Positions 39,374 through 63,577 of a DNA stretch of 64,000 nt are shown piece by piece. The stretch is taken from contig JBFWWP010000032.1 in NCBI GenBank assembly GCA_050246115.1, positions 1,078 through 65,077 on the forward strand, read 5' to 3'. The translations under genes were made by a program, and so were the position numbers. The notes under the pieces are model-generated. The model worked only from the letters and a program-made list of their open reading frames with translations. It searched no databases and was not told the DNA's origin. Source of the DNA: Planctomycetota bacterium (GTDB lineage: Bacteria > Planctomycetota > UBA8108 > UBA1146 > JAJFFE01). How positions within the stretch are numbered: position 1 is the first letter of the stretch; each line of letters opens with the position of its first letter.

Positions 39374-42106
39374 TCAGCGGATCTCGAGCGAACGCGCAGC
39401 GATCGAGGCGGTGAGATCGTGCTCCATCAGCAGATAGGGCAGAACCTCGACGAGCCGACCGGAGAACGGAACGAGCGTCGCTTCATCGAGGCGCGAAGAG
39501 GCCGTGAGCGTCGGGGTCAGAGTCAGCTCGACCCGGCACTGGGTCGAGAGCCAGCCAAGAAACTGGCGTAGCGTCAGCCGGGACTCGACGGTGACGAACA
39601 GGTCGTTCGAGAAGCACGAGCTCAGGTCCAGTGGGTGATCGTCCGGAGCCAGAGCGCGGAGGCGAACCTCGACGGGCTGGCCATCCCTTGCAGCCGATAC
39701 GTTGCGCATCGTCGCGACATCGTGGTCTGGTGCCGCAACGGTGAGGTCGTAACGACCGGGCGGCAAGGTCAGCGCCAGAGAGTCTGCGGCTTGGTGGGTC
39801 GAGAGTGCGGGAGCGCCGAGTTCTGCGATGGTGGCTTGGGCAAAAGCTGCGGATATCGGCAAGCCGTCGTTCGATCGAAGTCGCAAGACGAGGTTCACGC
39901 GGGAACTCGGGACGTCGGCGATGGTGACGCTTCCGGCACCCTGGCCGTCGGCAATCTCGACCGGTTGTACGGCACACAGGACCACTTGGTCCCACTCTCC
40001 GGTCCGGTAGAGCAGTGCGAGATAGGAGCCTGCCGGAACATTTCTGGCGACGAACTCGCCGGCGACGTCGCAGCGCGATGTCACTTGCGGTTGCTCGCCC
40101 CGCCAGGATCGGGTGAGGCTGACCCAGCGAACCTGGTACTCGTCCGGATTCACACCCGGAGCCGGCAGCACTCGTCCACTCACCGTGTTTCCCAGCGGCA
40201 GGGGCAGGGTGAGCGCTGTCTCGCTGCCCGGCGTCACGACGACCGAACGACGAATCAGCGAGAACGGGCCGCGCCCGGCCTCGATCTCGTACGACGCTGG
40301 CGCCAGGTTGGCGAAGACCGTAGCACCTTCCAGCGAAGTCAGCCCGTGGCCGACAATGCGGGTTCCGGTGATGACCGTGACCTCGATCTCGGGCAATGGC
40401 TCGCCTGAGTTGGTATCGAGGACTGCGACGCTGACGGATCCGCCGCGGTTCAGCTCGAGGCGCAAGTGCTCGTCGCCGGCATTGGCTTCCATCTGGCCTG
40501 TTGTCCAACCTGGCGCCTTGGCGGCGACCAGCACTCGCCCTGCGGGCACTCCGTCGAGCCGAAAGCACCCGGCCGGATCGGCGGTGGTGGCGCGATCACC
40601 CTCGGCTAGCGCACTTGGCCCGTTGTGAGCGACGATGGTCACGACGGCTCCGGGAATCGGGTAGCCGTCTCCGAACACGCAGCCGCCGAGGAGCAACGCG
40701 GAAACCAAGGCAAGGTCGATCGACTCGGTTGCCTGTGCAGGAAGCTCGAACGAGATCGACCGGCGCGGCGCATAGCCGAGGGCCGAGGCTTGCACTTGGT
40801 GCCGTGGGCCGTTGCCTTCGAGGAGGAGCATTGATCCGCCCAGTGTGACGAGCGCGTCGCCGTCACGTTCAGCCTGCATCCCCGCTTCGCTCTCCGGCGA
40901 TGGGCTGGTCGTAGACCCATCGGCAGGAGTTCCAGGGTTCGAGCTTGCGGGCGGAACCGCAAGTTCCGGCCGTGCAAAGAACGCATAGAACCCGTCCGTG
41001 TCGGAAACCGTCGCGGCGACGCGAACGAGCGAGGTCGAGGCCTCGGGGTTCTCGCCGTCGGCGTCCGCGGGTTGCTCGCCGAGGAGTTCCACGACGGCGC
41101 CAGCGATCGGATGACCGACGGGATCCACGACGCGGCCGGCGACACTTGGGACCTGCGCCACTTCGGATGCCGCCGGCGTGCTCGGGGCGAACCGCGACTC
41201 GGACGCAGTCTGGGCTCCCGTGGAGGCGACGGTGTCTGGCAGTGGGCGTGGCATCCCGCTCGCGTTGGCGGTCTCGGCGGTGACGTCACTCGCGCCGTTG
41301 GCCAGCGACGGTGGCTTCGGGTCGTTCGCAGCCGTGTCACCCGAGGAGGAGTAGACGGTCAGGATTACGCCGGGGCCGAGCACGACGCAGAGGAGCAGCA
41401 CTGCCCACTGACGCGCGCCGATCCCCGCACTCAGGCTCGCGTTCGACGTGGGCGCGAGAAGCGGGGCTTCGAACGCAGCATCGACTGCGGCATGGAGTCT
41501 GGCGGCGAGCGCGGTCGGCTCGGGGATGCGAGCGGGTCGCGCCAGCCAGTGCTCCAACTCGCAGAGGGATGTGGGCGCTAGACCGAGTGCGGCGGCCGGC
41601 CCCAGGAGTTCGCGCAGCCGTTCCTTGGCAGTCGCAATGCGCCGGGCAACGGTGCCTTCCGGGCAGCCCAGCGTGACGGCGATCTCGCGATACTTGAGGC
41701 CTTCGTGATAGTGAAGGACCAGCGGCATGCGAAGGGTGTCCGGCAGTTCGGCGAGCGCAGTGACCAGGGCTCGATTCGTCATCTCGACCTCCGCATCCGA
41801 TTCCGGGTTGGCGCGCGTGTCGGGCTCGACCGGCGCCAAGGCCTCCCGACGACGCCGACGTGTATCGTCGCGTCGCGCGCTGCGGGCAGCGTTCAACGTG
41901 ACCCGCACCAGCCACGGTGTGAGCGTCTGAATCGGCGGCGAATCGGTGCGGCTGCGGACGAGGCGGAGGAACACTTCCTGCGCCACATCTTCGGCGTCTT
42001 CCGCGTTTCCCAGCGCGCGATACGCCACCCGGTAAACGAGTCCACGGTGGCTCTCGACCGCCGCGTGGACGAACTGGCGAAACGACTCCGTGCTGGCGTG
42101 GGACAT
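39374..42106 (-). CDS. ECF sigma factor fused to a transmembrane helix and a large extracytoplasmic domain with carboxypeptidase-regulatory-like beta-sandwich repeats (single-polypeptide sigma/anti-sigma-like protein)
   Basis: N-terminal sigma regions 2 and 4 (DVAQEVFLRLV...; LVLHYHEGLKYREIAVTLGCPEGTVARRIATAKERL). Hydrophobic helix QWAVLLLCVVLGPGVILTV at about aa 225-245. Then a ~650-aa periplasmic region with GRVVDPVGHPIAGAVVEL-type repeats. Confidence 0.7.
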   Translation of the reverse strand: MSHASTESFRQFVHAAVESHRGLVYRVAYRALGNAEDAEDVAQEVFLRLVRSRTDSPPIQTLTPWLVRVTLNAARSARRDDTRRRRREALAPVEPDTRANPESDAEVEMTNRALVTALAELPDTLRMPLVLHYHEGLKYREIAVTLGCPEGTVARRIATAKERLRELLGPAAALGLAPTSLCELEHWLARPARIPEPTALAARLHAAVDAAFEAPLLAPTSNASLSAGIGARQWAVLLLCVVLGPGVILTVYSSSGDTAANDPKPPSLANGASDVTAETANASGMPRPLPDTVASTGAQTASESRFAPSTPAASEVAQVPSVAGRVVDPVGHPIAGAVVELLGEQPADADGENPEASTSLVRVAATVSDTDGFYAFFARPELAVPPASSNPGTPADGSTTSPSPESEAGMQAERDGDALVTLGGSMLLLEGNGPRHQVQASALGYAPRRSISFELPAQATESIDLALVSALLLGGCVFGDGYPIPGAVVTIVAHNGPSALAEGDRATTADPAGCFRLDGVPAGRVLVAAKAPGWTTGQMEANAGDEHLRLELNRGGSVSVAVLDTNSGEPLPEIEVTVITGTRIVGHGLTSLEGATVFANLAPASYEIEAGRGPFSLIRRSVVVTPGSETALTLPLPLGNTVSGRVLPAPGVNPDEYQVRWVSLTRSWRGEQPQVTSRCDVAGEFVARNVPAGSYLALLYRTGEWDQVVLCAVQPVEIADGQGAGSVTIADVPSSRVNLVLRLRSNDGLPISAAFAQATIAELGAPALSTHQAADSLALTLPPGRYDLTVAAPDHDVATMRNVSAARDGQPVEVRLRALAPDDHPLDLSSCFSNDLFVTVESRLTLRQFLGWLSTQCRVELTLTPTLTASSRLDEATLVPFSGRLVEVLPYLLMEHDLTASIAARSLEIR

Positions 42107-45502: not shown

Positions 45503-45557
45503 CGGAGGTCGAGCGGAGGTCGAGCGGAGGTCGAGCGGAGGTCGAGCGAAGGTCGAG
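45503..45557. repeat. 11-bp tandem repeat (CGGAGGTCGAG)x5 in a divergent intergenic region
   Basis: Directly visible: cggaggtcgag x4 plus one variant cgaaggtcgag, between the CZB chemoreceptor start (45293, minus) and the next gene start (45686, plus). Confidence 0.8.
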
Positions 45558-45685
45558 GGGTGGGCAGGGCCGGTCGCGGACTCAACGCCCACCGGTTCAG
45601 AATCGACCGGCGACGTGCTAGAGTCAGCGGCGCCAGGCGCGCGCGTAGCGCCCCCTCGATCACCCCCATCGGAAGGAAACACGAG

Positions 45686-46384
45686 ATGAAGGTGACCCCA
45701 ACCACTCGAGCGCTGGCCCTGATCGCTCTCCTCCTCGTCGCGACGCCCGCCTCCGGCTTCATTCGGGGCGACGTGGACGGGGGAGGAAGCGTGGATATCG
45801 GCGACGCGGTCGTTCTGCTCAACTCGTTGTTCGCACCCCAACCGCCGCAGGTCGCGTGCGCGGACTCCGCGGACACGAACGATGACGGAGCGGTGAATCT
45901 CGCTGACGCCATCTACTTGTTGGCGGCGCTGTTTCAGCCTTCCGCTCCGCCCATTCCTCCCCCGTACCCGAGCGATGGTATCGACCCGACTGCGGACCCA
46001 CTGCCACCCTGCGGTCCGCTGGGACTGCTGACCGTCGCAACGTTGTCCCAGGGTCCGGTCTCCGGGGACAGCACGCCGACGCAAGAGATCATCGTCGACG
46101 CGGTCGCCTGGAGTGCTTTCTGGGCGCAGCACTCGTCCGATCCGCAACCGTTCGTCGACTTCAGCACCGAGATGGTCGTCGCCATTCGCGAGGCGTTCGA
46201 TAACGCCGGCGTCACCATCAACATCGACGAGATCGAGGCGCTTGGAGCGACGCTCGAGATTCGCTATACGCTCACGCTTCCCGGTGTGCCACTTTCCCAG
46301 GCGGAGCAACCGCATCACTTCGTGCGTTGCCCGAAGGTGATTGCGCCGCCGGTCTGGGTGGCGACCGTCATCGCCTTGCCGTAG
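45686..46384 (+). CDS. Secreted protein with the dockerin-like module at the N-terminus, directly after the signal peptide
   Basis: GGAAGGAAAC SD-like then ATG 45686. Signal MKVTPTTRALALIALLLVATPASG. FIRGDVDGGGSVDIGDAVVLLNSLF ... CADSADTNDDGAVNLADAIYLLAALF ... PSDGIDPTADPLPPCGP. Confidence 0.6.
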   Translation: MKVTPTTRALALIALLLVATPASGFIRGDVDGGGSVDIGDAVVLLNSLFAPQPPQVACADSADTNDDGAVNLADAIYLLAALFQPSAPPIPPPYPSDGIDPTADPLPPCGPLGLLTVATLSQGPVSGDSTPTQEIIVDAVAWSAFWAQHSSDPQPFVDFSTEMVVAIREAFDNAGVTINIDEIEALGATLEIRYTLTLPGVPLSQAEQPHHFVRCPKVIAPPVWVATVIALP

Positions 46385-46525
46385 TCCAAGGATCTTCACC
46401 TCGGCGCGTCCGTCCGAGTTTGGGGGAGTCCAGGCCGAGTGGGTGCTAACCACGCGCGCACCCTCACGGTCGGCGGGCGCGTATCACCCCTGATGAGACC
46501 CGGTCCGATGTTCGAGGAGGATCGA

Positions 46526-49500
46526 ATGCGCCGATCGAGTGGCCTTGGTGCGTGGAGCGTCGTCCTGCTTTGGGCCATGGCCCTCGTGTGCCGGCCTGGG
46601 GCCGCCTTCGCGCAGGACATCGACATTGACCTGCTCGCGGGCATGAAGGCACGTGCGATCGGGCCCGCCACCATGAGTGGGCGGATCGCCGCGATCGACG
46701 CCGTCGTCGCCGATCCGCGGATCATCTACGTCGGCGCGGCGACGGGCGGGTTGTGGAAGACCACCAACGGCGGCCTGGAGTGGACGCCGCTCTTCGACGA
46801 TCAAGAAGCGCATGCCGTCGGAGCGGTCGCGATCTTCCAGCGCTCGCCTGACCTCGTCTGGGTTGGCACGGGAGAAGGCAATCCGCGAAACAGCGCTTCC
46901 GTCGGCAACGGCGTGTATCGCTCGCGCGACGGCGGGAAGACCTGGGTCCATCTGGGCCTCGCGAAGACCGAGCGGATCCATCGCATTTGCCTGCATCCCA
47001 CGGACCCCGACGTGGCCTATGTCGCGGCCATGGGGACATCTTGGGGCGAGAACTCCGAGCGCGGCGTCTATCGCACGACCGACGGCGGCCGCAGCTGGGA
47101 GCGCATCCTGTTCGTCGACGAGCGCACCGGGTGTGCCGACCTCGCCATCGACCCCACGAACCCCGCGAAGCTGTTCGCCGCGATGTGGGATCACCGCCGG
47201 TGGCCGTGGTCGTTTCGCTCCGGCGGGCCCGGATCGGGGTTGTTCGTGACCGACGACGGCGGCAACCACTGGCAGCGGCGCACCGAAGACGACGGCCTGC
47301 CGGCGGGAGATCTGGGGCGCATCGGGCTCGCGATCGCGCCGTCGGCCCCGCACGTCGTGTATGCGTACGTCGAGGCCCGCGAGAACTGCATCTGCCGGTC
47401 GGACGATGGCGGTGTGACGTGGCGGGTGGTGAGCACCGGGCAGGACATCGGCAATCGTCCCTTCTACTACGCGGATCTCCGAGTGGACCCGGTCGACCCG
47501 AAGCGGGTCTATAGCCTCTGGTCTCTGGTCAGCGTTTCCATCGATGGCGGCAAGAACTTCGAGATCCTCGTGCCCTTTGCCGAAGTGCATCCGGATCACC
47601 ATGCGTTGTGGATCAATCCGACCGACCCCCGGCACTTGATCAATGGCAACGATGGCGGCGTCGCCATCAGCCATGACCAGGGGCGCACCTGGCGTTACGT
47701 TCGGAACCTTCCCCTCGCGCAGTTCTATCATGTGCGCTACGACCTCGAGCGCCCCTACAACCTGTACGGCGGTCTGCAGGACAACGGCTCTTGGAAAGGA
47801 CCGAGCACCGTTTGGGAGAACGGCGGGATCCGCAACTACCACTGGCAGGAGGTGGCGTTCGGTGACGGTTTCGACACCGTGCCGGATCCTCGCGATCCCA
47901 CGACCGGGTATGCCATGAGCCAGGAGGGGTATCTGTGTCGGTGGAACACCGTGACCGGCGAGCGCAAGATGATCCGGCCGGAAGGGCCAGCGGGCGTAGA
48001 GCTACGCTTCAACTGGAACGCCGCGATCGCGATCGACGGGTCCCAGCCCGACACGATCTACTTCGGGAGTCAGTTCGTGCACCGCTCGCGAGATCGGGGG
48101 GAGACCTGGGATGTCATCAGCGGGGATCTGACCACCAATCACCCGGAGTGGCAGCAGCAGACCCGCAGCGGGGGACTCACGCCCGACGTGACCGGGGCGG
48201 AGAACTTCACGACCATCGTGGCGCTTGCGCCGAGTCCGCTCGATTCGTCGATCCTCTGGGTCGGAACGGACGACGGTCGGCTCCACGTCACGCGCGATGC
48301 CGGAGCGAGTTGGACCAGCCTCGAGGAACGGGTGCCCGGAGTGCCCCGGCACGCTTGGATTCCCCACATCACACCGTCGCAGCATCACGATGGGACCGCG
48401 TACGTCGTGTTCGACGATCATCGACGGTCGAACTGGGAACCCTACCTGTTTCGCACTCGTGACTTTGGCCAGACTTGGACCCGGCTCGCGGGCGCCGGGG
48501 TTTCGGGCTACTGCCTAGCCGTGGCCGAGGATCCGGTCGATCCCGATCTGCTCTTTCTCGGTACCGAGTTCGGTCTCTACTTGAGCTGTGACGGCGGGGC
48601 CCGTTGGCAGCGATGGAGTCACGGAGTTCCCCATGCATCGGTCATGGACCTTGCCATCCATCCGCGCGAGCATGACCTCATCGTCGCGACCCACGGGCGC
48701 GCGCTCTTCGTTCTCGACGACATTCGTCCGCTGCGGGGCCTGACCGGGGAGAAGCTGGCGGCACCGCTCACCTTGTTCGAGATCCCGCCGGCACAGCAGT
48801 ATTGGGTCGCCCAGACCGGATCGTCGCGGTTCGCGGGGCACGAGGAGTTCCGCGGTGCGAGCCGACCCTACGGTGCCCTGATCACGTTCGCGCTCAACGG
48901 TGACGGGTTGCCGCATCCCGACGAGCAGCAAGAGCGCTTGCGCAAAGAGCGAGCGCGCGCGGCCCGGGCCACGCTGGGGGACGGGCCGGAACCCCGAGCG
49001 CCGGGGGAGGGCGCCGCAGAGTCCAAGGCGGATCCGAAGCCCGAAGTCGAGATTCAGATCGCCACTCGCGACGGCACGGTCATTCGCACCTTCAAGCAGT
49101 CGGCGAAGCTCGGGATCAATCGAGTCGTCTGGAACCTGCGGCAGAAGGGGTTTCGCAGCCCACGCGACCCGGACGCGCCCCAGCCGTCGGCGGACGCCGA
49201 AGAGCCGCAGGGCCCCGAGGTGGTTCCCGGCGACTATCGGTTGACCGTCAAGTACCAGGACTACGTGGCTTCCGGTGTCGTGCAGGTGCTCGCCGATCCA
49301 CGCCTCCCGATCCCGCTGGCCGAGCGTGAGCGGAAGAGATCCGCGCAGTTACAGGTTGCGCAGTGGATCGAGACTCTCGCCATTGCCCTCGAACGAATTG
49401 GCGAAGTGAGGGGCGACCTGACGCGGGTGACGGAGAAGAGCGTTCAGCGCGACCGCCAACTCGGTGTGAAGCGCAAGGCCGGTGAGGAGACGGAACTCGC

Positions 49501-49825
49501 GCAGCGCGTGCAGCAGCTTCGCAAGGGACTCGATGAGGTCGAGAAGCGCCTGCGCAAGCCCGACGAGAGCAAGGGCATTCTCGCCGACGACACCGCCCTC
49601 GACCTCCTCTACCGGGCCAGCTGGTTCCTCGGCTCCTCTTGGGACGCTCCGACTGCTGCGCAGCAGGTCCTCATGGAGCGCGCGAGTAGCCAGCTGCAGT
49701 CGGTGCTCGACTCCCTCGACGAACTGCTCGCGCGCGAGGTGCCCGCACTCCGCGCGCTCGCGGTCGGAGAGGGATTCGACCTGTTCCAGCCCCAGGAGCC
49801 CTTGCGGCTATGGTTGCCCCGATGA
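46526..49825 (+). CDS. Large secreted BNR/Asp-box-repeat (sortilin/Vps10-like) beta-propeller protein
   Basis: GAGGAGG SD then ATG 46526. Signal MRRSSGLGAWSVVLLWAMALVCRPGAAFA. Repeated S-x-D-x-G-x-T-W Asp-box motifs (YRSRDGGKTW, YRTTDGGRSW, SDDGGVTW, SHDQGRTW, TRDAGASW, TRDFGQTW, SCDGGARW). Confidence 0.7.
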   Translation: MRRSSGLGAWSVVLLWAMALVCRPGAAFAQDIDIDLLAGMKARAIGPATMSGRIAAIDAVVADPRIIYVGAATGGLWKTTNGGLEWTPLFDDQEAHAVGAVAIFQRSPDLVWVGTGEGNPRNSASVGNGVYRSRDGGKTWVHLGLAKTERIHRICLHPTDPDVAYVAAMGTSWGENSERGVYRTTDGGRSWERILFVDERTGCADLAIDPTNPAKLFAAMWDHRRWPWSFRSGGPGSGLFVTDDGGNHWQRRTEDDGLPAGDLGRIGLAIAPSAPHVVYAYVEARENCICRSDDGGVTWRVVSTGQDIGNRPFYYADLRVDPVDPKRVYSLWSLVSVSIDGGKNFEILVPFAEVHPDHHALWINPTDPRHLINGNDGGVAISHDQGRTWRYVRNLPLAQFYHVRYDLERPYNLYGGLQDNGSWKGPSTVWENGGIRNYHWQEVAFGDGFDTVPDPRDPTTGYAMSQEGYLCRWNTVTGERKMIRPEGPAGVELRFNWNAAIAIDGSQPDTIYFGSQFVHRSRDRGETWDVISGDLTTNHPEWQQQTRSGGLTPDVTGAENFTTIVALAPSPLDSSILWVGTDDGRLHVTRDAGASWTSLEERVPGVPRHAWIPHITPSQHHDGTAYVVFDDHRRSNWEPYLFRTRDFGQTWTRLAGAGVSGYCLAVAEDPVDPDLLFLGTEFGLYLSCDGGARWQRWSHGVPHASVMDLAIHPREHDLIVATHGRALFVLDDIRPLRGLTGEKLAAPLTLFEIPPAQQYWVAQTGSSRFAGHEEFRGASRPYGALITFALNGDGLPHPDEQQERLRKERARAARATLGDGPEPRAPGEGAAESKADPKPEVEIQIATRDGTVIRTFKQSAKLGINRVVWNLRQKGFRSPRDPDAPQPSADAEEPQGPEVVPGDYRLTVKYQDYVASGVVQVLADPRLPIPLAERERKRSAQLQVAQWIETLAIALERIGEVRGDLTRVTEKSVQRDRQLGVKRKAGEETELAQRVQQLRKGLDEVEKRLRKPDESKGILADDTALDLLYRASWFLGSSWDAPTAAQQVLMERASSQLQSVLDSLDELLAREVPALRALAVGEGFDLFQPQEPLRLWLPR

Positions 49826-50213
49826 GTCGCTGGCGGACGCGCGGCGCGTAGCGGTCGTCCCCGCGCGAGTGCTCTCATCGCGAGCTTCGCAGCCCGGCAC
49901 GTGGTTCCACCCGACGGCCGCCGTGGCGACCGGATGGCGCCGACCCCGAGGGGTCAGGGTCGACCCCCGACTCACGTTCTCGAAAATCGTTTCGGCGAAC
50001 CGGGCGACTCGCGACGTGTATGAGGTAGGACGGACGTTGGGCGTCGGTGAACCCTCGCCCGGCGAGGGCAAGGGGTGCCGCCCCTTCGCCCTCGGCCGGG
50101 TTTCTTCACGGTTCGGGTCCACCCCGGACGTGACCGCCCGGAAACCGCGATGCCCGGCCACCGGATCGCTCGTTTCGCGTCTCATCTTCGTGCGTGGTTG
50201 ACGAGGCAATGTA

Positions 50214-52166
50214 ATGTCACCCGAGTATCGATACCTACGATCTGACGCGCTCCCCGACCGCGTATCCCTCGAGGCTTGTGTGGAAACATGCGCCGAGCGG
50301 GCATGGCGGCTCGCCTACGCGCTGTTGCGCAGCCACGACGACGCGTTCGACGTGGTGCAGCAGGCGTGTCTCGTTGCCGCCCTCAAGCCCGGGCAGATCC
50401 CGCGTCCACCCGCCGATCCCTGGCCCTGGTTCAGTGTGGTCATTGCGAACGAGGCTCGCAACTCCCGGCGCAAGGCTCGGAGAAGTCCACTGTCGCTCGC
50501 GAGCGGTGAGAAAGGAGAGTCCATGGATGTCGTCGACCATCGCGGGGTGGATCCAACGGACGCACTCGCCGTCGAGGACTCGCACCGCGCGCTGTGGCGA
50601 GAGATCGATGCGCTCCCTGAGCCGGAGCGCACGGCGTTGGTGCTCACCCGTATCGGCGGCCTCAGCCATGAAGCCGTTGCCCGCTCGGTCGGAGTGCCGC
50701 GTCAAACGCTGACGTCTCAGATCGCGCGCGCGATGGAGCGTCTGCGCGCTCGACTGCGGCGGGAGGATCCCGCGATTCTTGCGCAAATGGCGCTCTTGCC
50801 GGTGGCGCTCCCCGACCGCGGTTGGTCCGCGGCGATCGCCGCCTGGAAGACCACGGCTTCGGCTGGTCTGGCTGCGAAAGCGGCCGCCGGCACCATGACC
50901 CTAGGAGGTATCATGACACTCAGCAAGCCAACGCTGGCAGCGGCGATTTCGGTGGCACTTGGCGTCGGCTTGACCACGGGCTACTTCGCGGGCGATCACC
51001 GGCCGACTGCGCTGCGGGGAGTCGAGGAACGAGCCCAAAGTGAGCACGCAGCGATCGCGACGCTCGCAGACGCACCTGCGGCCCTACGACCGGTGATCGA
51101 CGCAGCCATCGCGGAGGCCTGCGCGACGACCTCCGCCCGTGTCCGCGAGTCGTTCGACTCCGAGCTTGCGGCCCTTCGCGCCCAGCACGAATCCGTGGTC
51201 GCCGAGCGCGACGCGCTCCGCGGCCAACTGGCTGAACTCGAAACCCCGAGTGACCCCGCAGGCCCGACCTTCACCTTCGGCGAAGGCGGACAGCTCCCGG
51301 AGGTGGCGCAGGCGAACTGGGCGGAGATGGCAGAGGCCTCCCACATCGTCGCTGGCGCGATCAAGGACATGGTCGCCTACCAAGATCGCGGCGAACCGGT
51401 CCCGACGAGCGTCGGCATTGCGATGCAGGAGAACGTCGAGAAGATGCGCAAGTACGAGTATCGCGTCTTCCAGAAGCTCCCATCCGAGGCCCGGTTCAAC
51501 GGCGAGTTCACGCACCCGATCTCGGTCACCAACCTGCTCGCAGCCGAGCTGACGCGTTCCGGGCTGCCGCTCACCGCCCCGCAGGTCGAGGCCATCAGCC
51601 GAGTCGGGGAGCAGTACGAGCAAGACGCCGCGCGCTACCGCGACAACTACCCGCCCGACACGCTTCGAGTGCGCAGGATCCTCGACGAGTACCTGCTCAA
51701 GAGCGACTTCACCGAGGCGGTCTACGAGGTGCTCACTCGTGAGCAACGACAGATCATCATCGATCCGGCGACGAACCGCATCGCGTTCCTCGATCTCTAC
51801 TGCCCCTCGCTGATGATCATCCACACGTCGCCGATCCTCCAGGGTGCGACGCCCGAGGAGTTGAAGACCAAGCTGGGGCAACTCGTGAGCGCTCGCTACT
51901 CGTTGGCCGACGCCGAAGGGGTCTGGCTCGAAGGGCTACTCCAAAACTGGCGCGCCCGCGTAGCCCCGATCCTGCACGAGGTTCCACCCCATCGCGTCCG
52001 CTACTACACTTTCGAAGAGAGCGTGATCGCCGGACACGCCACAGTGGAGCTACTGACCGAGCTACTCGGCCACGCGACCGACGACGCCGCGCGCGCCACG
52101 ATCCTGGATGAGGCTGGCTTCCTCATCCCGCGACTCGTCGCGGCGCCGACCGTCAGTCAAGGCTGA
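50214..52166 (+). CDS. ECF sigma factor fused to a transmembrane segment and a ~400-aa extracytoplasmic domain (second sigma/anti-sigma-like single polypeptide)
   Basis: Region 2 DDAFDVVQQACLVAAL...PWFSVVIANEARN. Region 4 ERTALVLTRIGGLSHEAVARSVGVPRQTLTSQIARAMERL. Hydrophobic segment LGGIMTLSKPTLAAAISVALGVGLTTGYF. Long helical C-terminal domain with no recognised family. Confidence 0.7.
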   Translation: MSPEYRYLRSDALPDRVSLEACVETCAERAWRLAYALLRSHDDAFDVVQQACLVAALKPGQIPRPPADPWPWFSVVIANEARNSRRKARRSPLSLASGEKGESMDVVDHRGVDPTDALAVEDSHRALWREIDALPEPERTALVLTRIGGLSHEAVARSVGVPRQTLTSQIARAMERLRARLRREDPAILAQMALLPVALPDRGWSAAIAAWKTTASAGLAAKAAAGTMTLGGIMTLSKPTLAAAISVALGVGLTTGYFAGDHRPTALRGVEERAQSEHAAIATLADAPAALRPVIDAAIAEACATTSARVRESFDSELAALRAQHESVVAERDALRGQLAELETPSDPAGPTFTFGEGGQLPEVAQANWAEMAEASHIVAGAIKDMVAYQDRGEPVPTSVGIAMQENVEKMRKYEYRVFQKLPSEARFNGEFTHPISVTNLLAAELTRSGLPLTAPQVEAISRVGEQYEQDAARYRDNYPPDTLRVRRILDEYLLKSDFTEAVYEVLTREQRQIIIDPATNRIAFLDLYCPSLMIIHTSPILQGATPEELKTKLGQLVSARYSLADAEGVWLEGLLQNWRARVAPILHEVPPHRVRYYTFEESVIAGHATVELLTELLGHATDDAARATILDEAGFLIPRLVAAPTVSQG

Positions 52167-52292
52167 GCCCACGCTCGAGGCCCGGAGTTCCTGCAGACCC
52201 AAGCGGAGCTGCAGCGGTTGCGCGCCGATTTCGAGGAGCTCGTGCCGAGCGACGAGCGCGAGGCCCTGAAGCAAGCGCATGCCGCGCTTGCT

Positions 52293-53090
52293 TCAGGCCG
52301 AGGTTGGTTCAGGCCGAGGTTGCGCACTGCGGTTCAAGGGTTCAAGGGGCGGGCCCTTTCGGAGCTGCTCCAATTCACTTCGGAGCGCCGCCCAGTACCT
52401 CCGGTCGACTTCACGTTCGGTGCGTTCCTCCGTCGCGATCTCGTTTTCGACTCCGACGAGGTCACCTTTGCAAGCGGCGGACACCGCGGGTCGTTCGTCG
52501 GCACACTCGGCAGCAAGTTGCGGTTGTTGGGTACAGAGTTCGACCAGAAACTCGGCCGTCCTCAGTTCCGCTAGCCAGAAACGGACTTTGGCCGGGTTTG
52601 CCGCCGCTCGGCCGGAGACATAGCTTGCTTCGACGAGGCGCCGCAGCATCCCCCGGTCCTGGTCACGCTGAGTCTTCTTGGCTCGGACGAGGTCCGGTAG
52701 CGACATGACCTCGATCGTCGCGCCGCCTCCGACCTCGATGGTAGTGCGTCGTGCGCACAACCGCTCGAAGTCTGCCACACCGCGCATGACCGCCATCACG
52801 TCCACCCTCATGCCGCGAGCCTCGGGATGATGACAGCGAAAGTGGATGCCATGACCGCGTTGGAGCTACTCGAGTTCGAGGGGAGGAACTGCGATCGTCT
52901 CCGCTTGCAGTTCCCGCAGAGCCTCACGGAGCCGGACGAGGTTCTCTTCGGACGAGCGAATCGCCAGGTTTGTGTCCCGGCTAAACTCCGCCCCTCCGTA
53001 CAATACGCAGGCTTGCCCCCCCATGAGGAGGCTCTGCACTTGGTGCCTTTGCATCGTAGAAAGGACTTTGCGTATCGGGCTCGGGGTCAA
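52293..53090 (-). pseudogene. Nucleotidyltransferase-like ORF interrupted by an in-frame TAG (52863-52865); candidate pseudogene
   Basis: Track ORFs 52866..53090 and 52293..52811 are in the same frame, separated only by TAG. Translation across it reads ...AVPPLELE*LQRGHGIHFRCHHPEARGMRVDVMAV.... Family assignment (minimal nucleotidyltransferase / AbiEii-like) is low confidence. Confidence 0.35.
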
Positions 53091-53541
53091 GGCTACCTCC
53101 CAGCATGAGGAAGTCGTTCCACAACTTCATGGACTCGGCGAATCGCTCGGCCGGGCTCAGCAGGTACCAAGCGGACCACTCGTACCCGCACACGTCGGCG
53201 GGTATCCAATCGGGCTGAGTCCCCACCCAGAGTTTCCTTCCACTGGCGCTACGCTACGCAGATCGTTCCACCGGGCTCGAGGGTGGGCCCAGCGACGCGT
53301 GCTGGAACGCTCTCGGGCCCCAAAGCCCCAATGCGTTGAGTCGAGTCTACGCGCCTGCCCCCGCAGTTCTCAAGGCCCCGGCACGCGAGTTCAGGGGTTC
53401 GGCATCCTCTGGCCCGGCGAACATCGCGCTCGACGCGAACCTCCCGCGCGAACCTCCCGCCCGAGAGTACTCCGCCCAGTGTGCACGAACACCCCGCCGG
53501 GCCGGCCGCTCGAGACTCGTTTCACGAATCGACCCACTGCC

Positions 53542-53620
53542 TATCGGCGGCCTCAGCCATGAAGCTCGTTGCCCGCTCGGAGGTATCATGACACTCAGCG
53601 AGCCAACGCTCGCAGCGGCG
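53542..53620. other. Chimeric remnant of the 50214..52166 sigma-fusion gene: two non-adjacent segments joined
   Basis: tatcggcggcctcagccatgaagc...gcccgctcgg matches 50651-50690. It is joined directly to aggtatcatgacactcagc.agccaacgct.gcagcggcg, which matches about 50906-50945. Confidence 0.5.
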
Positions 53621-53932
53621 GGGCTGCCGACTCCCCCGCGGGTGCGTCGCCCGCAGGCGCCACTCCCAGGCCACGCTCGCTTTCGGCTCCTAGCGTGAGA
53701 CGTGGTTCGGGAAGCCGATGAACGCGTTTCGCTTCGCGTGCAGCCTCCTGCTGCCTTCTCCAGCGCTGCCGCGCGTTACGGGGCAGTTCGGCCTCGTCGG
53801 CCTCGTTCCCTCGGAGTAACCCCTGCGATTCCGGACGTGGCCATTGTTTCGAAGGCGGGCGGAGCTACAGTCGTCGCACCAGCGCTCGCACAGGCGGGTG
53901 GCAATCTCGGCGGTGTTGACGGGAGGTCTCGG

Positions 53933-54226
53933 ATGCTCGAACTCGTGGCATGGGTCGTAGGCTGCGTCGTCGTGAGCTCGGAGCCGGCGGCGCCGCCACG
54001 CTTCGAAGCGCCTGTGCGACTCATGGCCGGTGAGAAACCGATGGGCGGCGACCGGCTCTATCCGTCGCCAGTGTTGCACGATGTCGATGGCGACGGGGTC
54101 GCGGATATGGTGATTGGCGATCTGGTCGGGAATCTCACTGTTTCGAAACGGGTCGCCGGCGCCTGGCTGGCCCCGACGCCACTCACCGCGGCCGACGGCA
54201 AGCCGCTCAAGTTCAACAACTGGTGA
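53933..54226 (+). CDS. N-terminal part (signal peptide + first FG-GAP repeat) of an FG-GAP/VCBS protein, ended by in-frame TGA 54224-54226
   Basis: MLELVAWVVGCVVVSSEPAAPP signal-like. VLHDVDGDGVADMVIGDLVG repeat. Same reading frame as the following 54236..55240 ORF. Confidence 0.35.
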   Translation: MLELVAWVVGCVVVSSEPAAPPRFEAPVRLMAGEKPMGGDRLYPSPVLHDVDGDGVADMVIGDLVGNLTVSKRVAGAWLAPTPLTAADGKPLKFNNW

Positions 54227-54235
54227 TGCATCGGC

Positions 54236-55240
54236 ATGGCTCCACAGTTCGTGGAGTTTAGCGGCGATCGGCATCTCGACATCGTCACTGCGACTTTCGA
54301 TGGTTCCGCGCACGTAGCTTTCGGAAGCGAAGGTGGGTTCCTCGCGCCCGAGCACATTCTCGACTCGAAAGGTCACCGGGTGTTGCTTGCGCAGTACTGG
54401 GACTATGAGCGCAAGGACTGGTTGGAGAACGCCAAGCAGCCCAAGGGACACTGCACCTCTGCCGTGGCGTTCGATTGGGACGGCGATGGCGACCTCGATC
54501 TGCTTCTCGGATCCTACGGTGATGGGCAACTCTATCGGCAGATGAACGAGGGCAAGGCCGGAGCCCCGCAGTTCACGGGCGTGAACCTGCCGATCTCCGC
54601 GGGGGGACAACCGCTACGCGTCGCAGGAGGCATCACGACCCCGCAGCTCGTCGACTGGAACGGCGACGGCCTCACCGACATCTTGTGTGGTGGTTTCGGC
54701 GACAGCTACGGCGACGGGCCCGGTGGGGGCGTCTGGGTCTACCTGAACTGCGGTGCGGCCAAGTCACCGAGCTTCGACGCACCGATCACGCTCATCCCAA
54801 CGAGTCCCAAGGGCGCGAAACAGCCGACCCGCCCCGACTCTGCCTTGTACGCACACGCAGTCGACTACGACGCCGACGGCGACCTGGACCTCATCGTCGG
54901 CGGATACAGCCACTGGAGTCCGCCCGCCCGATCGCTGAGTGAGGCCGAGCAAACGCGAGTGTTGGAACTCCAGCGCCAAATCGAGGGCGTAGAAGAGCGA
55001 GTCGCGAAGCTCTACGCCGCTGTCGAGAAAGGGCTCGAAGCCGCCACTCCGGAAGCGCAAAGCGCCGCGATCGACAAGCTCTTCGAAAGCCCGGAGTTCC
55101 TGGAGGCTCAAGCGGAGCTGCAGCGGCTGCACGCCGAACTCGACGGACTCGTGCCCAGCGACAAGCGCGAGGCCTTCGTCTGGTACTACGAGAGATCGAC
55201 CGCGAGCCAGTCGACGACGAAGACCACCGGTACCTTCTGA
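54236..55240 (+). CDS. FG-GAP/VCBS-repeat protein (C-terminal portion if the TGA at 54224 is a disruption)
   Basis: Repeats FDWDGDGDLDLLLGSYGDGQLY, VDWNGDGLTDILCGGFGDSYGDG, VDYDADGDLDLIVGGYSHW. Helical C-terminal tail. Stop TGA 55238-55240, immediately abutted by an IS fragment. Confidence 0.6.
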   Translation: MAPQFVEFSGDRHLDIVTATFDGSAHVAFGSEGGFLAPEHILDSKGHRVLLAQYWDYERKDWLENAKQPKGHCTSAVAFDWDGDGDLDLLLGSYGDGQLYRQMNEGKAGAPQFTGVNLPISAGGQPLRVAGGITTPQLVDWNGDGLTDILCGGFGDSYGDGPGGGVWVYLNCGAAKSPSFDAPITLIPTSPKGAKQPTRPDSALYAHAVDYDADGDLDLIVGGYSHWSPPARSLSEAEQTRVLELQRQIEGVEERVAKLYAAVEKGLEAATPEAQSAAIDKLFESPEFLEAQAELQRLHAELDGLVPSDKREAFVWYYERSTASQSTTKTTGTF

Positions 55241-55242
55241 GG

Positions 55243-55770
55243 ACCCCGGTGCCCACACGGTCTCCCACTGACCCTGGTGGCAGTTGAGGGCACGGGCGAC
55301 CTGGCTACCTGAGAACTGCATGAACTTGGGAAGGGTCTTTCCAGAGTACGAGACGACGAGGTGCAAGTGATTGCTCAAGACCTGGAAGGCGTGGACCCTG
55401 ACCGAGTAGCGCTCCGCCGCGACGGCGAGCAGATACAAGATGAGCTGGTTCACCTCCCGGCTCGGCCGAAGTCGATGCTGACGTTTCAAGACGCGTCGCG
55501 TCACCATGACCGTGCCGCTCGGCGGCAGCAGGCGTGGGGGTGTCGCCATGCGAACTCCTCTCACGGAGGATGTTCGCAATCCGCCAGCCGGGCTGTTATC
55601 AGCGACCCCGAAAGGCCGCAACTGCAGACTACCACCGCGATTGAACCTCCGACGTCAGGGAATCGTCGGCCCTGGGGCCAACGACCGAACCAGGACGAAG
55701 CACCGGAGGCGGTTGCCCGAGTGGTGGGGGGCGGGGCACGGGGATTTCTCTCGGGCGGGTGTTTCCCCCC
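55243..55770 (-). mobile_element. IS fragment: right-end sequence plus the 5' ~105 codons of the HUH transposase gene (55243..55558), truncated
   Basis: Near-identical to 57845..58391 of the complete copy. Homology begins exactly 2 bp after the FG-GAP gene stop and ends near gggcgggtgtttcccc. Confidence 0.75.
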
Positions 55771-56841: not shown

Positions 56842-58391
56842 GGAGCATCCCGCCCGAAAGTAATCCGCTGAGTGAGCCCGGTAGCACGTTCGTGTCTTCC
56901 GCGAAGTGCGCCCTCGGTGTCGAGAACGGCATGATGAGTCCATCGCGACCGAGTCCTGGGCGTGCCAGTTGGCCTCGGTCGGTCGGTGAGGGGGCCGGTT
57001 GCTGAGTGGCGTGACCGTCGGCAATCGTCGTTCAGGCTGGCCCGATGGCGGGCGGTGTTGGCGAGTGTTGCTGGTGACGAGCGCCAACGACTTAGTGTTC
57101 AGCGATCTCTGGCACTCGGGGTCCGCGCCCACGAGAACCGAGTCGTGCCACAGACCTTCACGAGTGAGTCGGCGGGGGCTGCGAAGCGAGCCAAGAGTGC
57201 TGCCGCAGAGATCTCAAAGCCGTGTCGTGAGCGACGCACGTCAGGAGGGGGCTGGATCCTCGCAGCGCGCGCCGAGAAAGACGTGCATCCGGTATGTGCC
57301 ACTCGGGAAGACGACGGAGCGCTGGCCGGACACGAAGCGCGCGAGTGCATGTGCGTAACGGGCGAGGAACTCCTTGAGTCGTTGGATCGCCTCGAGGCGC
57401 GCCCAGCGATTGGAGGCCGCGATCCTCGGGTTGAGACCCCGCCGTGGTTCGCCGCCTCTTGGGTAGGAGTGCGGCGACTGCGCGAGTATGGCCTGGGCGC
57501 CGAGGAACCCCAGGCCCTTCGCTTTGCGATCTCGGCGGATCGTGCGCTCGCGCTCTCTGCAGTTGGCGATGAGTTGGCCCCGCGCTTCCTCCGCGGACAG
57601 CCCGGGGATGCGCGGCATCGAGGTCTCGAGCACCACCGACTCGGGCATGCCTCCCTCCGCGTCGAAGAAGAAGTCGGGACGGTCGACCTGCCAAGATCGT
57701 CGACCGATCTCATGCGCGAGAATCTTGACTCCTGGCCACTCCTTGGCGCTCCGCACGAGTCCGGCCGCGACGACGTTCGTCAGCACGTACAGCATGTACT
57801 TGAAGATCGTCGCTCGATCTCGGAGGAAGTCGAGTTTGTTGTAGGACCCCGGTGCCCACACGGTCTCCCACTGGCCCTGGTGGCAGTTGAGGGCCCGGGC
57901 GACCTGGCTACCTGAGAACTGCATGAACTTGGGGAGGGTCTTCCCAGAGTACGAGACGACGAGGTGCAAGTGGTTGCTCAAGACCTGGAAGGCGTGGACC
58001 CTGACCGAGTAGCGATCCGCCGCGACGGCGAGCAGATACAAGATGAGCTGGTTCACTTCCCGGCTCGGCCGAAGTCGATGCTGCCGTTTCAAGACGCGCC
58101 GCGTCACCATGACCGTGCCGCTCGGCGGCAGCAGACGTGGGGGTGTCGCCATGCGAACTCCTCTCTCGGAGGACGTTCGCAATCCGCCAGCCGGGCGGTC
58201 ATCAGCGACCCCGAAACGCCGCAACTGCGGAGTTCCACCGCGATTGAACCTCCGACGTCAAGGAATCGTCGGCCCTGGGCCTTCGTCGTCGAACGACCGA
58301 ACCAGGACGAAGCACCGGAGGCGGTTGCTCGAGTGGTGGGGGGCGGGGCACGGGGATTACTCTCGGGCGGGTGTTTCCCCGGTGTTTCCCC
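56842..58391 (-). mobile_element. Complete copy of a ~1.55 kb IS-like element encoding an HUH-type (IS200/IS605-like Y1) transposase; imperfect terminal repeats around a CCCGCCCGA core
   Basis: Left end GGAGCATCCCGCCCGAAAG is shared by the copies at 59563 and 63578. Right end ...CTCGGGCGGGTGTTTCCCC is shared with 55770. The reverse-complemented ends share CCCGCCCGA. Confidence 0.7.
57241..58152 (-). CDS. Transposase, HUH superfamily (IS200/IS605-like)
   Basis: GAGAGAGGAG SD then ATG 58152 (MATPPRLLPP). HUH-like motif VLSNHLHLVV. 304 aa. Same protein repeated (partial) at 55243..55558 and 59958..60252. Confidence 0.55.
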   Translation of the reverse strand: MATPPRLLPPSGTVMVTRRVLKRQHRLRPSREVNQLILYLLAVAADRYSVRVHAFQVLSNHLHLVVSYSGKTLPKFMQFSGSQVARALNCHQGQWETVWAPGSYNKLDFLRDRATIFKYMLYVLTNVVAAGLVRSAKEWPGVKILAHEIGRRSWQVDRPDFFFDAEGGMPESVVLETSMPRIPGLSAEEARGQLIANCRERERTIRRDRKAKGLGFLGAQAILAQSPHSYPRGGEPRRGLNPRIAASNRWARLEAIQRLKEFLARYAHALARFVSGQRSVVFPSGTYRMHVFLGARCEDPAPS

Positions 58392-59562: not shown

Positions 59563-60252
59563 GGAGCATCCCGCCCGAAAGTAATCCGCCGAGTGAGCCC
59601 GGTAGCACGTTCGTGTCTTCCGCGAAGTGCGGGCTCGGTGTCGAGAACGGCATGATGGGTCCATCGCGATCGAGTCCTGGGCGTGCCAGTTGGCCTCGGT
59701 CGGTCGGTGGGGGGGCCGGTTGCTGAGTGGCGTGACCGTCGGCAATCGTCGTTCAGGCTGGCCCGATGGCGGGCGGTGTTGGCGAGTGTTGCTGGTGACG
59801 AGCGCCAACGACTTGGTGTTCAGCGATCTCTGGCACTCGGGGTCCGCGCCCACGAGAACCGAGTCGTGCCACATTCACGAGTGAGTCGGCGGGGGCTGCG
59901 AAGCGAGCCAAGAGTGCTGCCGCAGAGATCTCAAAGCCGTGTCGTGAGCGACGCACGTCAGGAGGGGGCTGGATCCTCGCAGCGCGCGCCGAGAAAGACG
60001 TGCATCCGGTATGTACCACTCGGGAAGACGACGGAGCGCTGGCCGGACACGAAGCGCGCGAGTGCATGTGCGTAACGGGCGAGAAACTCCTTGAGTCGTT
60101 GGATCGCCTCGAGGCGCGCCCAGCGATTGGAGGCCGCGATCCTCGGGTTCAGGCCCCGCCGTGGTTCGCCGCCTCTTGGGTAGGAGTGCGGCGACTGCGC
60201 GAGTATGGCCTGGGCGCGGAGCAGATACACGATGAGCTGGTTCACTTCCCGG
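59563..60252 (-). mobile_element. IS fragment: left end plus 3' transposase segment with a ~0.5 kb internal deletion, truncated at 60252
   Basis: 59563..~60215 is near-identical to 56842..~57500 of the full copy, then jumps to the ...cagatacacgatgagctggttcacttcccgg segment (about 58028-58060 in the full copy). Confidence 0.75.
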
Positions 60253-60345
60253 CAGCTTGGGTCGCCGAGGATGTCGGTGGCTTCAGCGCGAGCGAAGGCC
60301 GACGTGGCCATCTCCGTCATCCGGTCCAACGCGCGCCGCCACTCG

Positions 60346-61284
60346 TCACGCGGTTCGTGCGGGCCGCTCCAGCGTTGCACCGCGGCGCGCCGCTCCTCCA
60401 CCTAGCCGCTGCACCTTCGGGTGGTGGAACAGCCGGGTGAAGGACGCCCGCGCCGGCGCACGCCAGGTGCGCAGGAACCGCTCGAGTTCGTTCAGGAAGC
60501 CGACCCCGCAGTTGTGGTCCGAGACCTCGTCGTGGGTCGATCTCGCCGTCGGCCGCTCGGTTCGGATGCGGAGGACCATGCTCGTGGCTCGTGGATGCGT
60601 GACGGCGGCATGCAGAAAGCGCCACGTGGCCTCCCGCTGCCGGCCCAACTCGTGCGCGGCGAGGGCGGCGATGAGATTCTGTTCCGGGTACAGCTCGCTC
60701 AGCCCTTTCGCCGCCTCGAAGGACTCGGCCCAGTTGCTGCGGTTCAGGTGAATCGTGGCTCGGTGAGCGGCCGCCGTGATGTCGTCGCCGTATCTCCTGT
60801 CCAGTCGGTCGCACAGATCGAGCGCCTCATCATCGCGCCCCGCGCGGGCCAGGGTGAGGGTCAGGTTGCGGAGGCCGCGCAGGAAGGGCCGTATCTCGAG
60901 TAGCGTCCAGTAGTGTTGCTTCGCGAGCCGGCTCGGGAACTGCTTGCGGCCCACCTCGATGGTGCGCCGGAAGTGCTCCTCCGCCGGTTCTAGTTGACCC
61001 CGGTCGAGCGCGATGAGTCCAAGGTAGTTGTACCCATTCGCGAATGCGCCGAAGCAGTCGAGGAGCAGGCGGAAGACCGACTGGGCCTCGTCCATGCGGC
61101 CTTCTCGGTAGAGATTGGCCGCCATCTCCTCGACCTCTGGCGGGACCCCGGATGGAGACAGGGTGTAGCTCCAGCCGAAAGCGTCGGCCAAGAACGGCGA
61201 GCCCTCCGCTCCGGTGCAGACCCGGACCCGCGTTTCGATGAGGTCGCGCAGGAATGCGAGCTCGTGGCGGTGCTCCTGGATCAC
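60346..61284 (-). CDS. TPR-like helical repeat protein (hypothetical)
   Basis: GTG start (MIQEHRHELAF). Repeats such as YNYLGLIALDRGQLEPAEEHFRRTIEV and AGRDDEALDLCDRL. The C-terminal ~60 aa are low-complexity and may be over-extended. Confidence 0.45.
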   Translation of the reverse strand: MIQEHRHELAFLRDLIETRVRVCTGAEGSPFLADAFGWSYTLSPSGVPPEVEEMAANLYREGRMDEAQSVFRLLLDCFGAFANGYNYLGLIALDRGQLEPAEEHFRRTIEVGRKQFPSRLAKQHYWTLLEIRPFLRGLRNLTLTLARAGRDDEALDLCDRLDRRYGDDITAAAHRATIHLNRSNWAESFEAAKGLSELYPEQNLIAALAAHELGRQREATWRFLHAAVTHPRATSMVLRIRTERPTARSTHDEVSDHNCGVGFLNELERFLRTWRAPARASFTRLFHHPKVQRLGGGAARRGATLERPARTA

Positions 61285-61626
61285 CTGCGCAGTGGGGGTT
61301 CGCCGTGGCGAGCTCGCGCGTGAACCCGATCAGGCGGTTTCGGAAGCCATTGGTCAGCTGGGCGCCCCTTGGCGGGTAGGTGTCCGGCAACGTGTCGAGC
61401 CCCTCCCTTTCGAGTTGTGTTTTTGGTTTGTGCGAACACAACATCAAAGTCAATGGGCCGAATCGGGAACTGTGCTCAGGACATTTCTGGACGTTCTTCC
61501 AGGGACCGGGGTCGCGAACCAGCGCCCACCGGACAGGATCGGACGGGATCGGGAGAACGGGCACTTTTGACACAAGAATGTTCTATTCACTGGACCTTTG
61601 GTGCGCTGAAGTATATTTTACTCAAC

Positions 61627-61941
61627 ATGACCAAGCGGACGGTTCCGGTCTTCCCCCAAGGGCAGCGCCAGCTCGAGCAGCTCGGGGAACGGCTGCGGCT
61701 GGCGCGGCTGCGGCGGCGTCTGACCCAGGCCATCGTGGCGGCGCGGGTCGGGGTGTCGAAGCAGACGCTCGGCAAGCTAGAAGCGGGGAACGCCTCGACG
61801 AGCCTCGCGACGCTCGTACGGCTCCTGGGTGTGCTCGGCCTCGCCGAGGACCTCGACCGCCTCGCTGCGGACGACGAACTCGGGCGGCGCCTCCAGGACC
61901 TCGAGCAGAAGGCCCCGCCCCGGGGCAAGGCGAAGCCGTGA
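61627..61941 (+). CDS. hipB: HipB-like XRE-family HTH antitoxin
   Basis: LRLARLRRRLTQAIVAARVGVSKQTLGKLEAGNASTSLATLVRLLGVLGL is a Cro/C1-type HTH. AT-rich TTGACA-containing promoter-like stretch upstream. Stop overlaps the hipA GTG start. Confidence 0.7.
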   Translation: MTKRTVPVFPQGQRQLEQLGERLRLARLRRRLTQAIVAARVGVSKQTLGKLEAGNASTSLATLVRLLGVLGLAEDLDRLAADDELGRRLQDLEQKAPPRGKAKP

Positions 61942-63392: not shown

Positions 63393-63577
63393 TCACAGCA
63401 ACTGGGAGACGAAGGTCCTCGCCGGCACGGTGACGGGTCGCCCGGGTGCCGAGAAACAGTCGAGGTCGACGTAGTCTGCGTTCAGCACGACCTGGAACGG
63501 GAACGCAGCCCCGAGTTGCCGTTGGAAGTACTCGAGCGCTGGGGTGAGAGAGTCGTCGGTGATCTTCACTTCTACGG
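63393..63577 (-). pseudogene. 3' remnant of a gene whose upstream portion is replaced by an IS insertion
   Basis: The track ORF 63393..63668 reads out of the IS left end. Only ...PVEVKITDDSLTPALEYFQRQLGAAFPFQVVLNADYVDLDCF... is native sequence. Origin unknown. Confidence 0.3.

Follow-up and report, generated by a model that had tools for sequence, protein, structure and literature searches.

A 64,000-nucleotide stretch of DNA from a Planctomycetota bacterium (contig JBFWWP010000032.1, positions 1,078 to 65,077; the window, below) contains a 79-bp sequence (53542..53620, plus strand) which copies, and joins directly, two separated parts of a nearby gene for an extracytoplasmic function (ECF) sigma factor (50214..52166, plus strand). 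This fragment is most probably neutral, non-functional debris, the relic of a gene piece that was copied locally and joined through microhomology. It is of little weight by itself, and marks a stretch of the genome prone to small copy-and-join rearrangements; a start signal inside the ECF gene and a probable selenoprotein gene of the FG-GAP repeat type downstream of the fragment are more useful by-products of the analysis.

The 79-bp copy and its setting

The fragment is composed of two pieces, A' and B', whose sources lie 217 bp apart in the ECF gene and which retain their order and orientation. A' (53542-53580, plus strand) is a copy of 50651..50688, within the sigma4 coding region (R-IGGLSHEAVARS), and matches it in 38 of 39 columns, the sole difference being a T inserted at 53566. 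B' (53576-53620, plus strand) matches 50901..50945 in 42 of 45 positions, with three substitutions, one of which changes K to E. The source of B' holds a Shine-Dalgarno (SD)-like motif and an in-frame ATG, and reads GGAGGTATCATG followed by ten more codons, up to the beginning of the transmembrane (TM) segment (LGGIMTLSKPTLAAA). By blastn-short, the E values are 2.8e-11 for A' and 4.5e-13 for B'; the shared 24-mer and 21-mer occur twice each in the window and never in 100 shuffles. Identity to the gene is 93-97% by piece, and about 96% for A' and B' together. The chimera had been proposed in an earlier reading of the sequence alone, and its two separated parts hold up in this base-by-base alignment.

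The pieces meet inside 53576-53580 (CTCGG), which fits both the CTCGG ending the first source piece and the CTAGG starting the second one, a microhomology of 2 nt if exact and of 4/5 if imperfect. Compared to the gene, the copy lacks 217 bp and has gained 1 bp, for a net change of -216, and its template is 2.7-2.9 kb away. The boundaries of both pieces are sharp, without erosion, and no ECF-gene remnant other than A' and B' was found in the window outside the gene by blastn at word size 7, tblastn or 13-mer matching. The Lys following the internal Met, kept by the gene and by most of its family, is Glu in B', as expected of a copy drifting without selection.

Chimeric joins may also be created by an assembler, when a path through k-mers shared in a metagenome graph, or a mixture of strains, is read as one sequence. 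The source is a metagenome-assembled genome (MAG), and a second NCBI MAG contig covering the locus (JBFWPE010000035.1, assembly GCA_050250155.1, locus L001) ends in a repeat at window position 57235, which indicates that the assembler struggled nearby. Across the fragment, however, this contig is 100% identical to the window, and the Logan assembly of SRR27751815 (L002, 9751 bp) is identical to it over 45519-55269. Since two differing pipelines agree at 100% over 9.75 kb, mis-assembly is very unlikely. Furthermore, the fragment has variants of its own (the extra T and the three substitutions) and unique flanks, so that the reads must contain it. The concern about the assembly at 53.5 kb, raised in the sequence-only reading, is answered by the identity of both assemblies at that point, and the probability left to an artefact of assembly or strain mixing is close to nil.

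The spacer hosting the fragment (53227..53932, 706 bp) lies between divergent genes and shows flat codon-position GC; by the same measure, a coding signal is found in the ECF gene, in open reading frames (ORFs) on the minus strand at 52293-53226 and in the FG-GAP gene, on the plus strand from 53933. The fragment is located in the middle of the spacer. No long ORF runs through it, as stops are present at 53696 in its own frame and at 53589 in another one. Clearly descended from a gene, truncated, interrupted by in-frame stops and not part of a complete ORF, it has the features by which a gene relic is defined.

A regulatory function was also considered for the fragment, either as a minus-strand RNA antisense to the internal SD and ATG of the ECF gene, or as a small upstream ORF or ribosome decoy before the FG-GAP gene. 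The match to the ECF gene, perfect over 21 nt and near-perfect over 45 nt, spans the SD motif and the start codon, where base-pairing regulators usually act, and the surrounding region is one of divergent promoters, with a sigma70-like match at 53373-53344. This is, however, the only such match on the minus strand and, for minus-strand transcription, it is located downstream of the fragment, which it would not transcribe. No terminator was found, the folding of 53500-53700 was no better than that of shuffled sequences on either strand (z-scores of 0.9 and 0.1), and Rfam, at the gathering threshold, matched nothing in the window. The A' half has no obvious target logic, and the overall pattern is the same as that of plainly non-functional scars nearby. 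A regulatory role is thus highly improbable.

Origin of the fragment among other rearrangement scars

Self-comparison of the window revealed more short repeats of high identity, all of them between 50 and 64 kb. An 86-bp segment at 52180..52265 (plus strand) is 86% identical, without gaps, to 55089-55174, which encodes the conserved C-terminal tail of the FG-GAP family (LxPxxKREAFVW). It begins 14 nt past the stop codon of the ECF gene and is in frame with that gene. The two scars are therefore reciprocal, with an FG-GAP piece beside the ECF gene and an ECF piece beside the FG-GAP gene. The tail copy stops exactly at a perfect 14-bp hairpin (52265-52297), an inverted repeat with a 5-nt loop, located between the convergent ECF and 172-aa genes.

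Pieces of a transposase, with identities of 94-98%, form another set. An IS200/RAYT-like Y1 transposase gene is found at 57241-58224 (minus strand), recognized at scores under the curated cutoffs. A 5' fragment of it (55240-55768, minus strand) abuts the stop codon of the FG-GAP gene. In a derivative at 59563-60253 (minus strand), a 35-nt piece is joined to a 660-nt piece at an imperfect microhomology, 525 bp being absent between them. A partial copy lies at 63577-64000. So many scars at one locus suggest that the region repeatedly underwent local copying and microhomology-mediated joining.

Two small tandem duplications were also noted, a 15-mer with a 16-nt period at 52292-52322 and, within the spacer, 14-mers at 53434-53447 and 53447-53460 (53434-53460 overall, 13-nt period). 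The contig JBFWPE010000035.1 stops in a repeated unit, at 56842-57504, and the window continues for 6.7 kb beyond that stop, so that the arrangement of the repeated pieces at 57-64 kb may be less secure than the sequence elsewhere in the window.

For the 79-bp fragment, the following course of events is proposed. A stretch of the ECF gene that begins in the sigma4 coding region and ends where the membrane helix starts would have been copied into the spacer 2.9 kb downstream, and the two pieces kept would have been joined at CTCGG/CTAGG-AGG by a microhomology-mediated event. The copy would then have drifted, with the insertion of one T and three substitutions, including the loss of the conserved Lys. 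Two routes may lead to this state. A larger duplicate of the ECF gene, since lost, may have been whittled down by at least three deletions, one of them a slippage deletion inside the copy; this route is favoured by the reciprocal FG-GAP fragment, because it shows that larger paralogous material was once there. Alternatively, a single template switch during replication may have copied two short stretches, their template lying at a distance of 2.7-2.9 kb, a route favoured by the sharp boundaries, the size of the pieces (about 40 nt), their kept order and orientation, and their near-identity to the gene. Short templated patches from microhomology-mediated template switching are of the type described as fork stalling and template switching or microhomology-mediated break-induced replication (FoSTeS/MMBIR). 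The sequence-only reading had called the fragment a deletion derivative of a second copy; this is reasonable, but a patch made in one step fits equally well, given the sharp ends, the pieces of about 40 nt and the lack of any other trace.

Some observations weigh against neutral debris. Among the data within reach, the locus is found in one genome only: scans for exact patterns of the fragment and of the ECF gene, in collections of genome and metagenome contigs, gave 0 matches. The net change of -216 is divisible by 3, and the frame in which A' and B' read is also that of the FG-GAP gene downstream. Each agreement has about one chance in three of arising by accident; together, they leave room for a past coding role. 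In addition, the strong SD and the ATG in B' could, judging from their sequence, start an ORF of 36 codons.

A past coding role is central to another explanation, in which the fragment is the fossil of the capture of a sigma module. A duplicate spanning sigma2, sigma4, the linker and the pre-TM segment would have been inserted upstream of the FG-GAP gene, giving rise to an ECF-FG-GAP fusion, or nearly so, which was then reduced to 79 bp through deletions. This is exactly the duplication-and-insertion route of Pinto et al. 2020 (PMC7671368), who proposed that a duplicated sigma core, once landed beside or within another gene, provides planctomycetal ECFs with a new C-terminal extension. The frame shared with the FG-GAP gene and the in-frame net deletion would fit such an event, as would the end of B' at residue 244, near the module boundary, and the fact that, in other genomes, the sigma-linker-TM module carries WD40 or CarboxypepD_reg domains. 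On the other hand, the first 437 bp of the module left no trace, B' is cut off from the FG-GAP start at 53933 by the in-frame stop at 53696 and by a gap of 310 bp, and the agreement in frame has the one-in-three chance already given. The FG-GAP family has its own signal peptide, with a sigma domain in none of the 120 homologues listed, and the ECF-FG-GAP adjacency is absent from the three relatives' loci examined. Capture of a sigma module is consequently considered unlikely, and local copying followed by neutral decay is retained as the best account of the fragment.

Two further candidates were set aside. The idea that the ECF and FG-GAP genes are ancestral neighbours which underwent a tandem two-gene duplication and reciprocal loss found no support, since the relatives' loci examined have different ECF neighbours. 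A diversity-generating retroelement was rejected, as there are only three differences and no reverse transcriptase nearby.

The ECF fusion gene, its family and its neighbours

The ECF gene encodes a protein of 650 aa, composed of a sigma core, a TM segment and a 390-aa C-terminal domain. Pfam detects sigma2 (PF04542, Sigma70_r2; residues 23-90, 50280-50483, plus strand) and sigma4 (PF08281, Sigma70_r4_2; residues 125-177, 50586-50750, plus strand), and finds no match for sigma1 or sigma3, the composition that defines the ECF sigma factors (group 4 of the sigma-70 family). Accordingly, the protein scores 56.1 bits against the ECF superfamily model TIGR02937 of NCBIfam, above the cutoff of 42.9; its scores with the planctomycetal subfamily models TIGR02984 and TIGR02989, also from NCBIfam, are far under the cutoffs. 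Residues 241-259 (50934-50990, plus strand) form its one clearly hydrophobic stretch, with a Kyte-Doolittle value of 1.65. About 470 residues follow sigma4 and are kept across 18 aligned family members, well over the 50 aa from which a C-terminal extension is recognized.

The full-length AlphaFold2 model, built from an alignment of 18 sequences, has a pLDDT (predicted local distance difference test) of 79.7, with a C-terminal part predicted to be mostly helical. Modelled alone, the C-terminal domain reaches a pLDDT of 92.1 and a pTM (predicted template modelling score) of 0.89, the confidently predicted helical fold covering about 51261-52163 (plus strand). In a Foldseek search, only the sigma core was matched, the top structures being the ECF cores SigW, RpoE and CnrH. 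For the C-terminal domain (51261-52163), there was no fold match in PDB (best E = 1.0), no sequence match in PDB and no Pfam family. Motifs invariant within the family in this domain include FTFG, QENxE, NGE and DEYxxK. The layout is of an already known kind, that of ECF sigma factors with membrane-spanning C-terminal extensions, and the outer domain of this protein is uncharacterised.

No anti-sigma domain of the zf-HC2, RskA or FecR type was detected by Pfam between sigma4 and the TM segment (residues 180-240), an interval that holds just a conserved linker, LAxLPxxxPPGGWExALAAWK, predicted to form two helices; nor do the neighbouring ORFs show an anti-sigma match in Pfam or NCBIfam, although a divergent anti-sigma factor may escape these models. 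The fused sigma-TM-extracytoplasmic layout that had been proposed for 50214..52166 is thus borne out by the sigma2 and sigma4 matches, the single TM segment and the large helical C-terminal domain, while the label 'sigma/anti-sigma-like' given to it applies only loosely.

Another ECF fusion is encoded at 39374..42106 (minus strand): in its 910 aa, Pfam and hydropathy identify sigma2, sigma4, a TM segment at residues 235-253 and CarboxypepD_reg repeats. Its extracytoplasmic part consists of beta-sandwich repeats, unrelated, as had been claimed, to the helical domain of the 650-aa protein. The sigma cores of the two fusions share only 34% identity, so they are not recent duplicates. The 650-aa protein belongs to a family of 26 proteins with identities of 33-49%; its own cluster at 90% identity has one member sequence, and the next relative, 49% identical, comes from a different assembly. 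A scan covering one genome per species gave about 20 family loci that were full-length or nearly so, all of them in Planctomycetota MAGs and no two in the same species representative. The gene is intact and apparently present as a single copy, and its family, found in Planctomycetota, is one of membrane-tethered ECF sigma factors. The suggestion that this architecture is expanding in the genome is not supported, in view of the 34% core identity, the single-member cluster and the occurrence of one locus per species representative, and the 79-bp fragment gives no support for a growing gene family.

The neighbourhood of the family genes varies, synteny not being kept in the three relatives' loci examined. 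At the locus of the closest relative (L003), an ECF-CarboxypepD_reg fusion (7779-10337) lies 2.8 kb from the 650-aa family gene. A conserved pair of fusions was considered and rejected, as this CarboxypepD_reg fusion is not an orthologue of the 910-aa gene and resembles it only weakly, at the level of the repeats. The sigma-linker-TM block (residues about 18-259, 39-42% identity) is joined elsewhere to WD40 propellers (loci L028, L029 and L064) and, in locus L030, to a CarboxypepD_reg domain; one block with differing extensions in other genomes is consistent with module shuffling. A search for an ECF-type promoter dyad shared upstream of 17 family genes gave at best a motif in 6 sequences, no better than in shuffled controls.

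The piece of the gene copied into B' contains, directly before the TM segment, an SD-like GGAGGT separated by 4 nt from an in-frame ATG (Met234; 50904..50915, plus strand). The site was compared at aligned positions in the window and in loci L003, L010-L030 and L064. Among 22 family loci, the pre-TM Met codon is ATG in 19, and in 2 more a GTG follows the SD-like motif; spacing from the SD to the start ranges between 4 and 11 nt, with a mode of 7. The energy of the duplex with the anti-SD sequence is -10.8 kcal/mol at 50904-50915, and its median is -9.3 kcal/mol for the pre-TM Met codons (n=19), compared to -3.2 kcal/mol for the other internal Met codons of the family genes (n=243; Mann-Whitney p = 3e-7) and -6.1 kcal/mol for annotated gene starts in the same genomes (n=53). 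In 16 of 18 loci, GGA is the first of two conserved Gly codons, while GGA usage in these genes is 15% (binomial p = 6e-12); the third base of the second Gly codon, not needed by the SD, varies more freely. Since protein identity reaches 70% in just one pair of loci, this points to selection on the nucleotide sequence itself. An SD at a functional spacing from an in-frame start, conserved beyond the needs of the protein, is what defines a site of internal initiation. The residues after the pre-TM Met, M-x-x-K and then a hydrophobic stretch, are like those found at the N-terminus of signal-anchored proteins.

The simplest reading of these sequence features is that the membrane-anchored C-terminal domain would also be translated on its own. 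The alternative, an SD-like element acting to pause ribosomes, would leave the start codon unexplained, and selection generally acts against SD motifs inside genes (10.1101/278689, PMC5100845). No description of an internal SD and start in fused ECFs was found in the literature searched. If used, the internal start would mean that 'one-component' sigma factors also make a free copy of their own sensor domain, which would add a new layer to the control of fused sigma factors. A wider proposal is advanced only tentatively, and with some doubt: each gene would give two products, a tethered sigma factor and a free sensor, the block formed by sigma, linker, SD and pre-TM segment would be the unit duplicated and attached anew to other outer domains in Planctomycetota, and the 79-bp relic, whose end falls inside this block and which is in frame with the gene of another exported protein downstream, would be a trace of this shuffling, caught in the act.

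The FG-GAP repeat gene downstream of the fragment (53933..55240, plus strand), in frame with A' and B', is interrupted by an in-frame TGA at 54224-54226, in the context FNNW-TGA-CIGMAPQFV. TGA and context are kept in five other loci (L007, L008, L087, L089 and L090), at 46-60% protein identity, in all of which the annotation shows two ORFs with 9 nt between them. The same split is widespread: the family has 1,985 matches at E <= 0.001, and the members listed are annotated as two genes divided at the TGA; all 14 of the 14 aligned FG-GAP homologues start at M(A/S)PQFV, and, among cluster representatives of the upstream part, at least 30 have ...NW as their very last residues. A full-length homologue of 440 aa (P0282) has a Cys at the TGA position (NW-C-CTGM), and a conserved hairpin, CUCCAC-AGUUY-GUGGAG, is located 3' of the UGA. 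As a conserved TGA, a Cys counterpart and a hairpin are the usual signature of selenoproteins, the sequence makes it probable that the gene encodes a selenoprotein, with TGA read as selenocysteine. The alternative of a pseudogene was discarded, the gene being intact in view of the TGA conserved in five other loci and of the Cys counterpart. FG-GAP, VCBS and Planctomycetes are unmentioned in the main text of two recent selenoproteome papers.

Between the ECF gene and the fragment, small ORFs are present on the minus strand (52293..53226), of 81 aa and of 74 and 172 aa, the latter two sharing a frame, with a TAG at 52866-52868 between them. Pfam and NCBIfam show no family match for any of the three. 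The 74-aa and 172-aa ORFs are probably a split pseudogene. The N-terminal part of their reading frame (52293-53090, minus strand) is nucleotidyltransferase-like in look (MGGQACVLYGG); the 81-aa ORF (52981-53226, minus strand) overlaps this frame and has good codon-position GC. At the far end of the window, an Xre-type HTH gene is followed by a gene for a HipA-like kinase, with a TPR protein adjoining (61369-63185, plus strand, and 60346-61284, minus strand). By their sequences, the first two are a hipBA-type toxin-antitoxin pair and, together with the transposase fragments, they make the 3' third of the window resemble an accessory island.

Proposed working and comparison with known systems

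By analogy with characterized proteins, the sigma part of the 650-aa protein would be tethered to the membrane through its single helix, with the helical C-terminal domain facing outward. A signal sensed by the outer domain would lead to regulated proteolysis and free the sigma core, as in the models for IutY and SCO4117. Such proteolysis has been demonstrated in IutY, a sigma/anti-sigma hybrid, and suggested for ECF48, ECF52 and ECF53 (PMC8999054), and C-terminal extensions are the second most common mode of ECF regulation (PMC7826278). On the strength of this analogy, anchoring of the sigma part at the membrane and its release by regulated proteolysis are probable. More speculatively, a sensor domain made separately, from the internal start, could use a predicted long helix at residues 289-342 to pair, or compete, with the tethered form.

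With respect to the copied fragment, the resemblance to FoSTeS/MMBIR lies in the short pieces, of the same orientation, taken from a template a few kb away, with a microhomology of 2-5 nt and few errors. To our knowledge, most documented cases of patching by template switching come from eukaryotes and from E. coli model systems, and not from Planctomycetota. The events proposed by Pinto et al. 2020 (PMC7671368) are similar in that a partial ECF copy is found near, and in frame with, an unrelated downstream gene, and in that the module occurs with varied extensions; they differ in that, here, only 79 bp of the module are present, interrupted by stops and fused to nothing.

The 650-aa protein itself is comparable to IutY of Pseudomonas putida, to SCO4117 (ECF52), to ECF48, ECF52 and ECF53 and to the ECF01-Gob/ECF57-type factors, all of which combine sigma2-sigma4, a TM segment and a large extracytoplasmic domain in one polypeptide. 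No separate anti-sigma gene was recognized by Pfam or NCBIfam adjoining the 650-aa gene. Unlike the IutY/ECF52 hybrids, the protein has no detected zinc-finger or RskA-type domain between sigma4 and the TM segment. Relatives of its sigma module carry WD40 or CarboxypepD_reg domains, and WD40 repeats are also present in the planctomycetal ECF01-Gob/ECF57-type factors. From other ECFs with fused extensions, the 650-aa protein is set apart by a C-terminal domain without Pfam or PDB match, and by an internal SD and start that have been kept.

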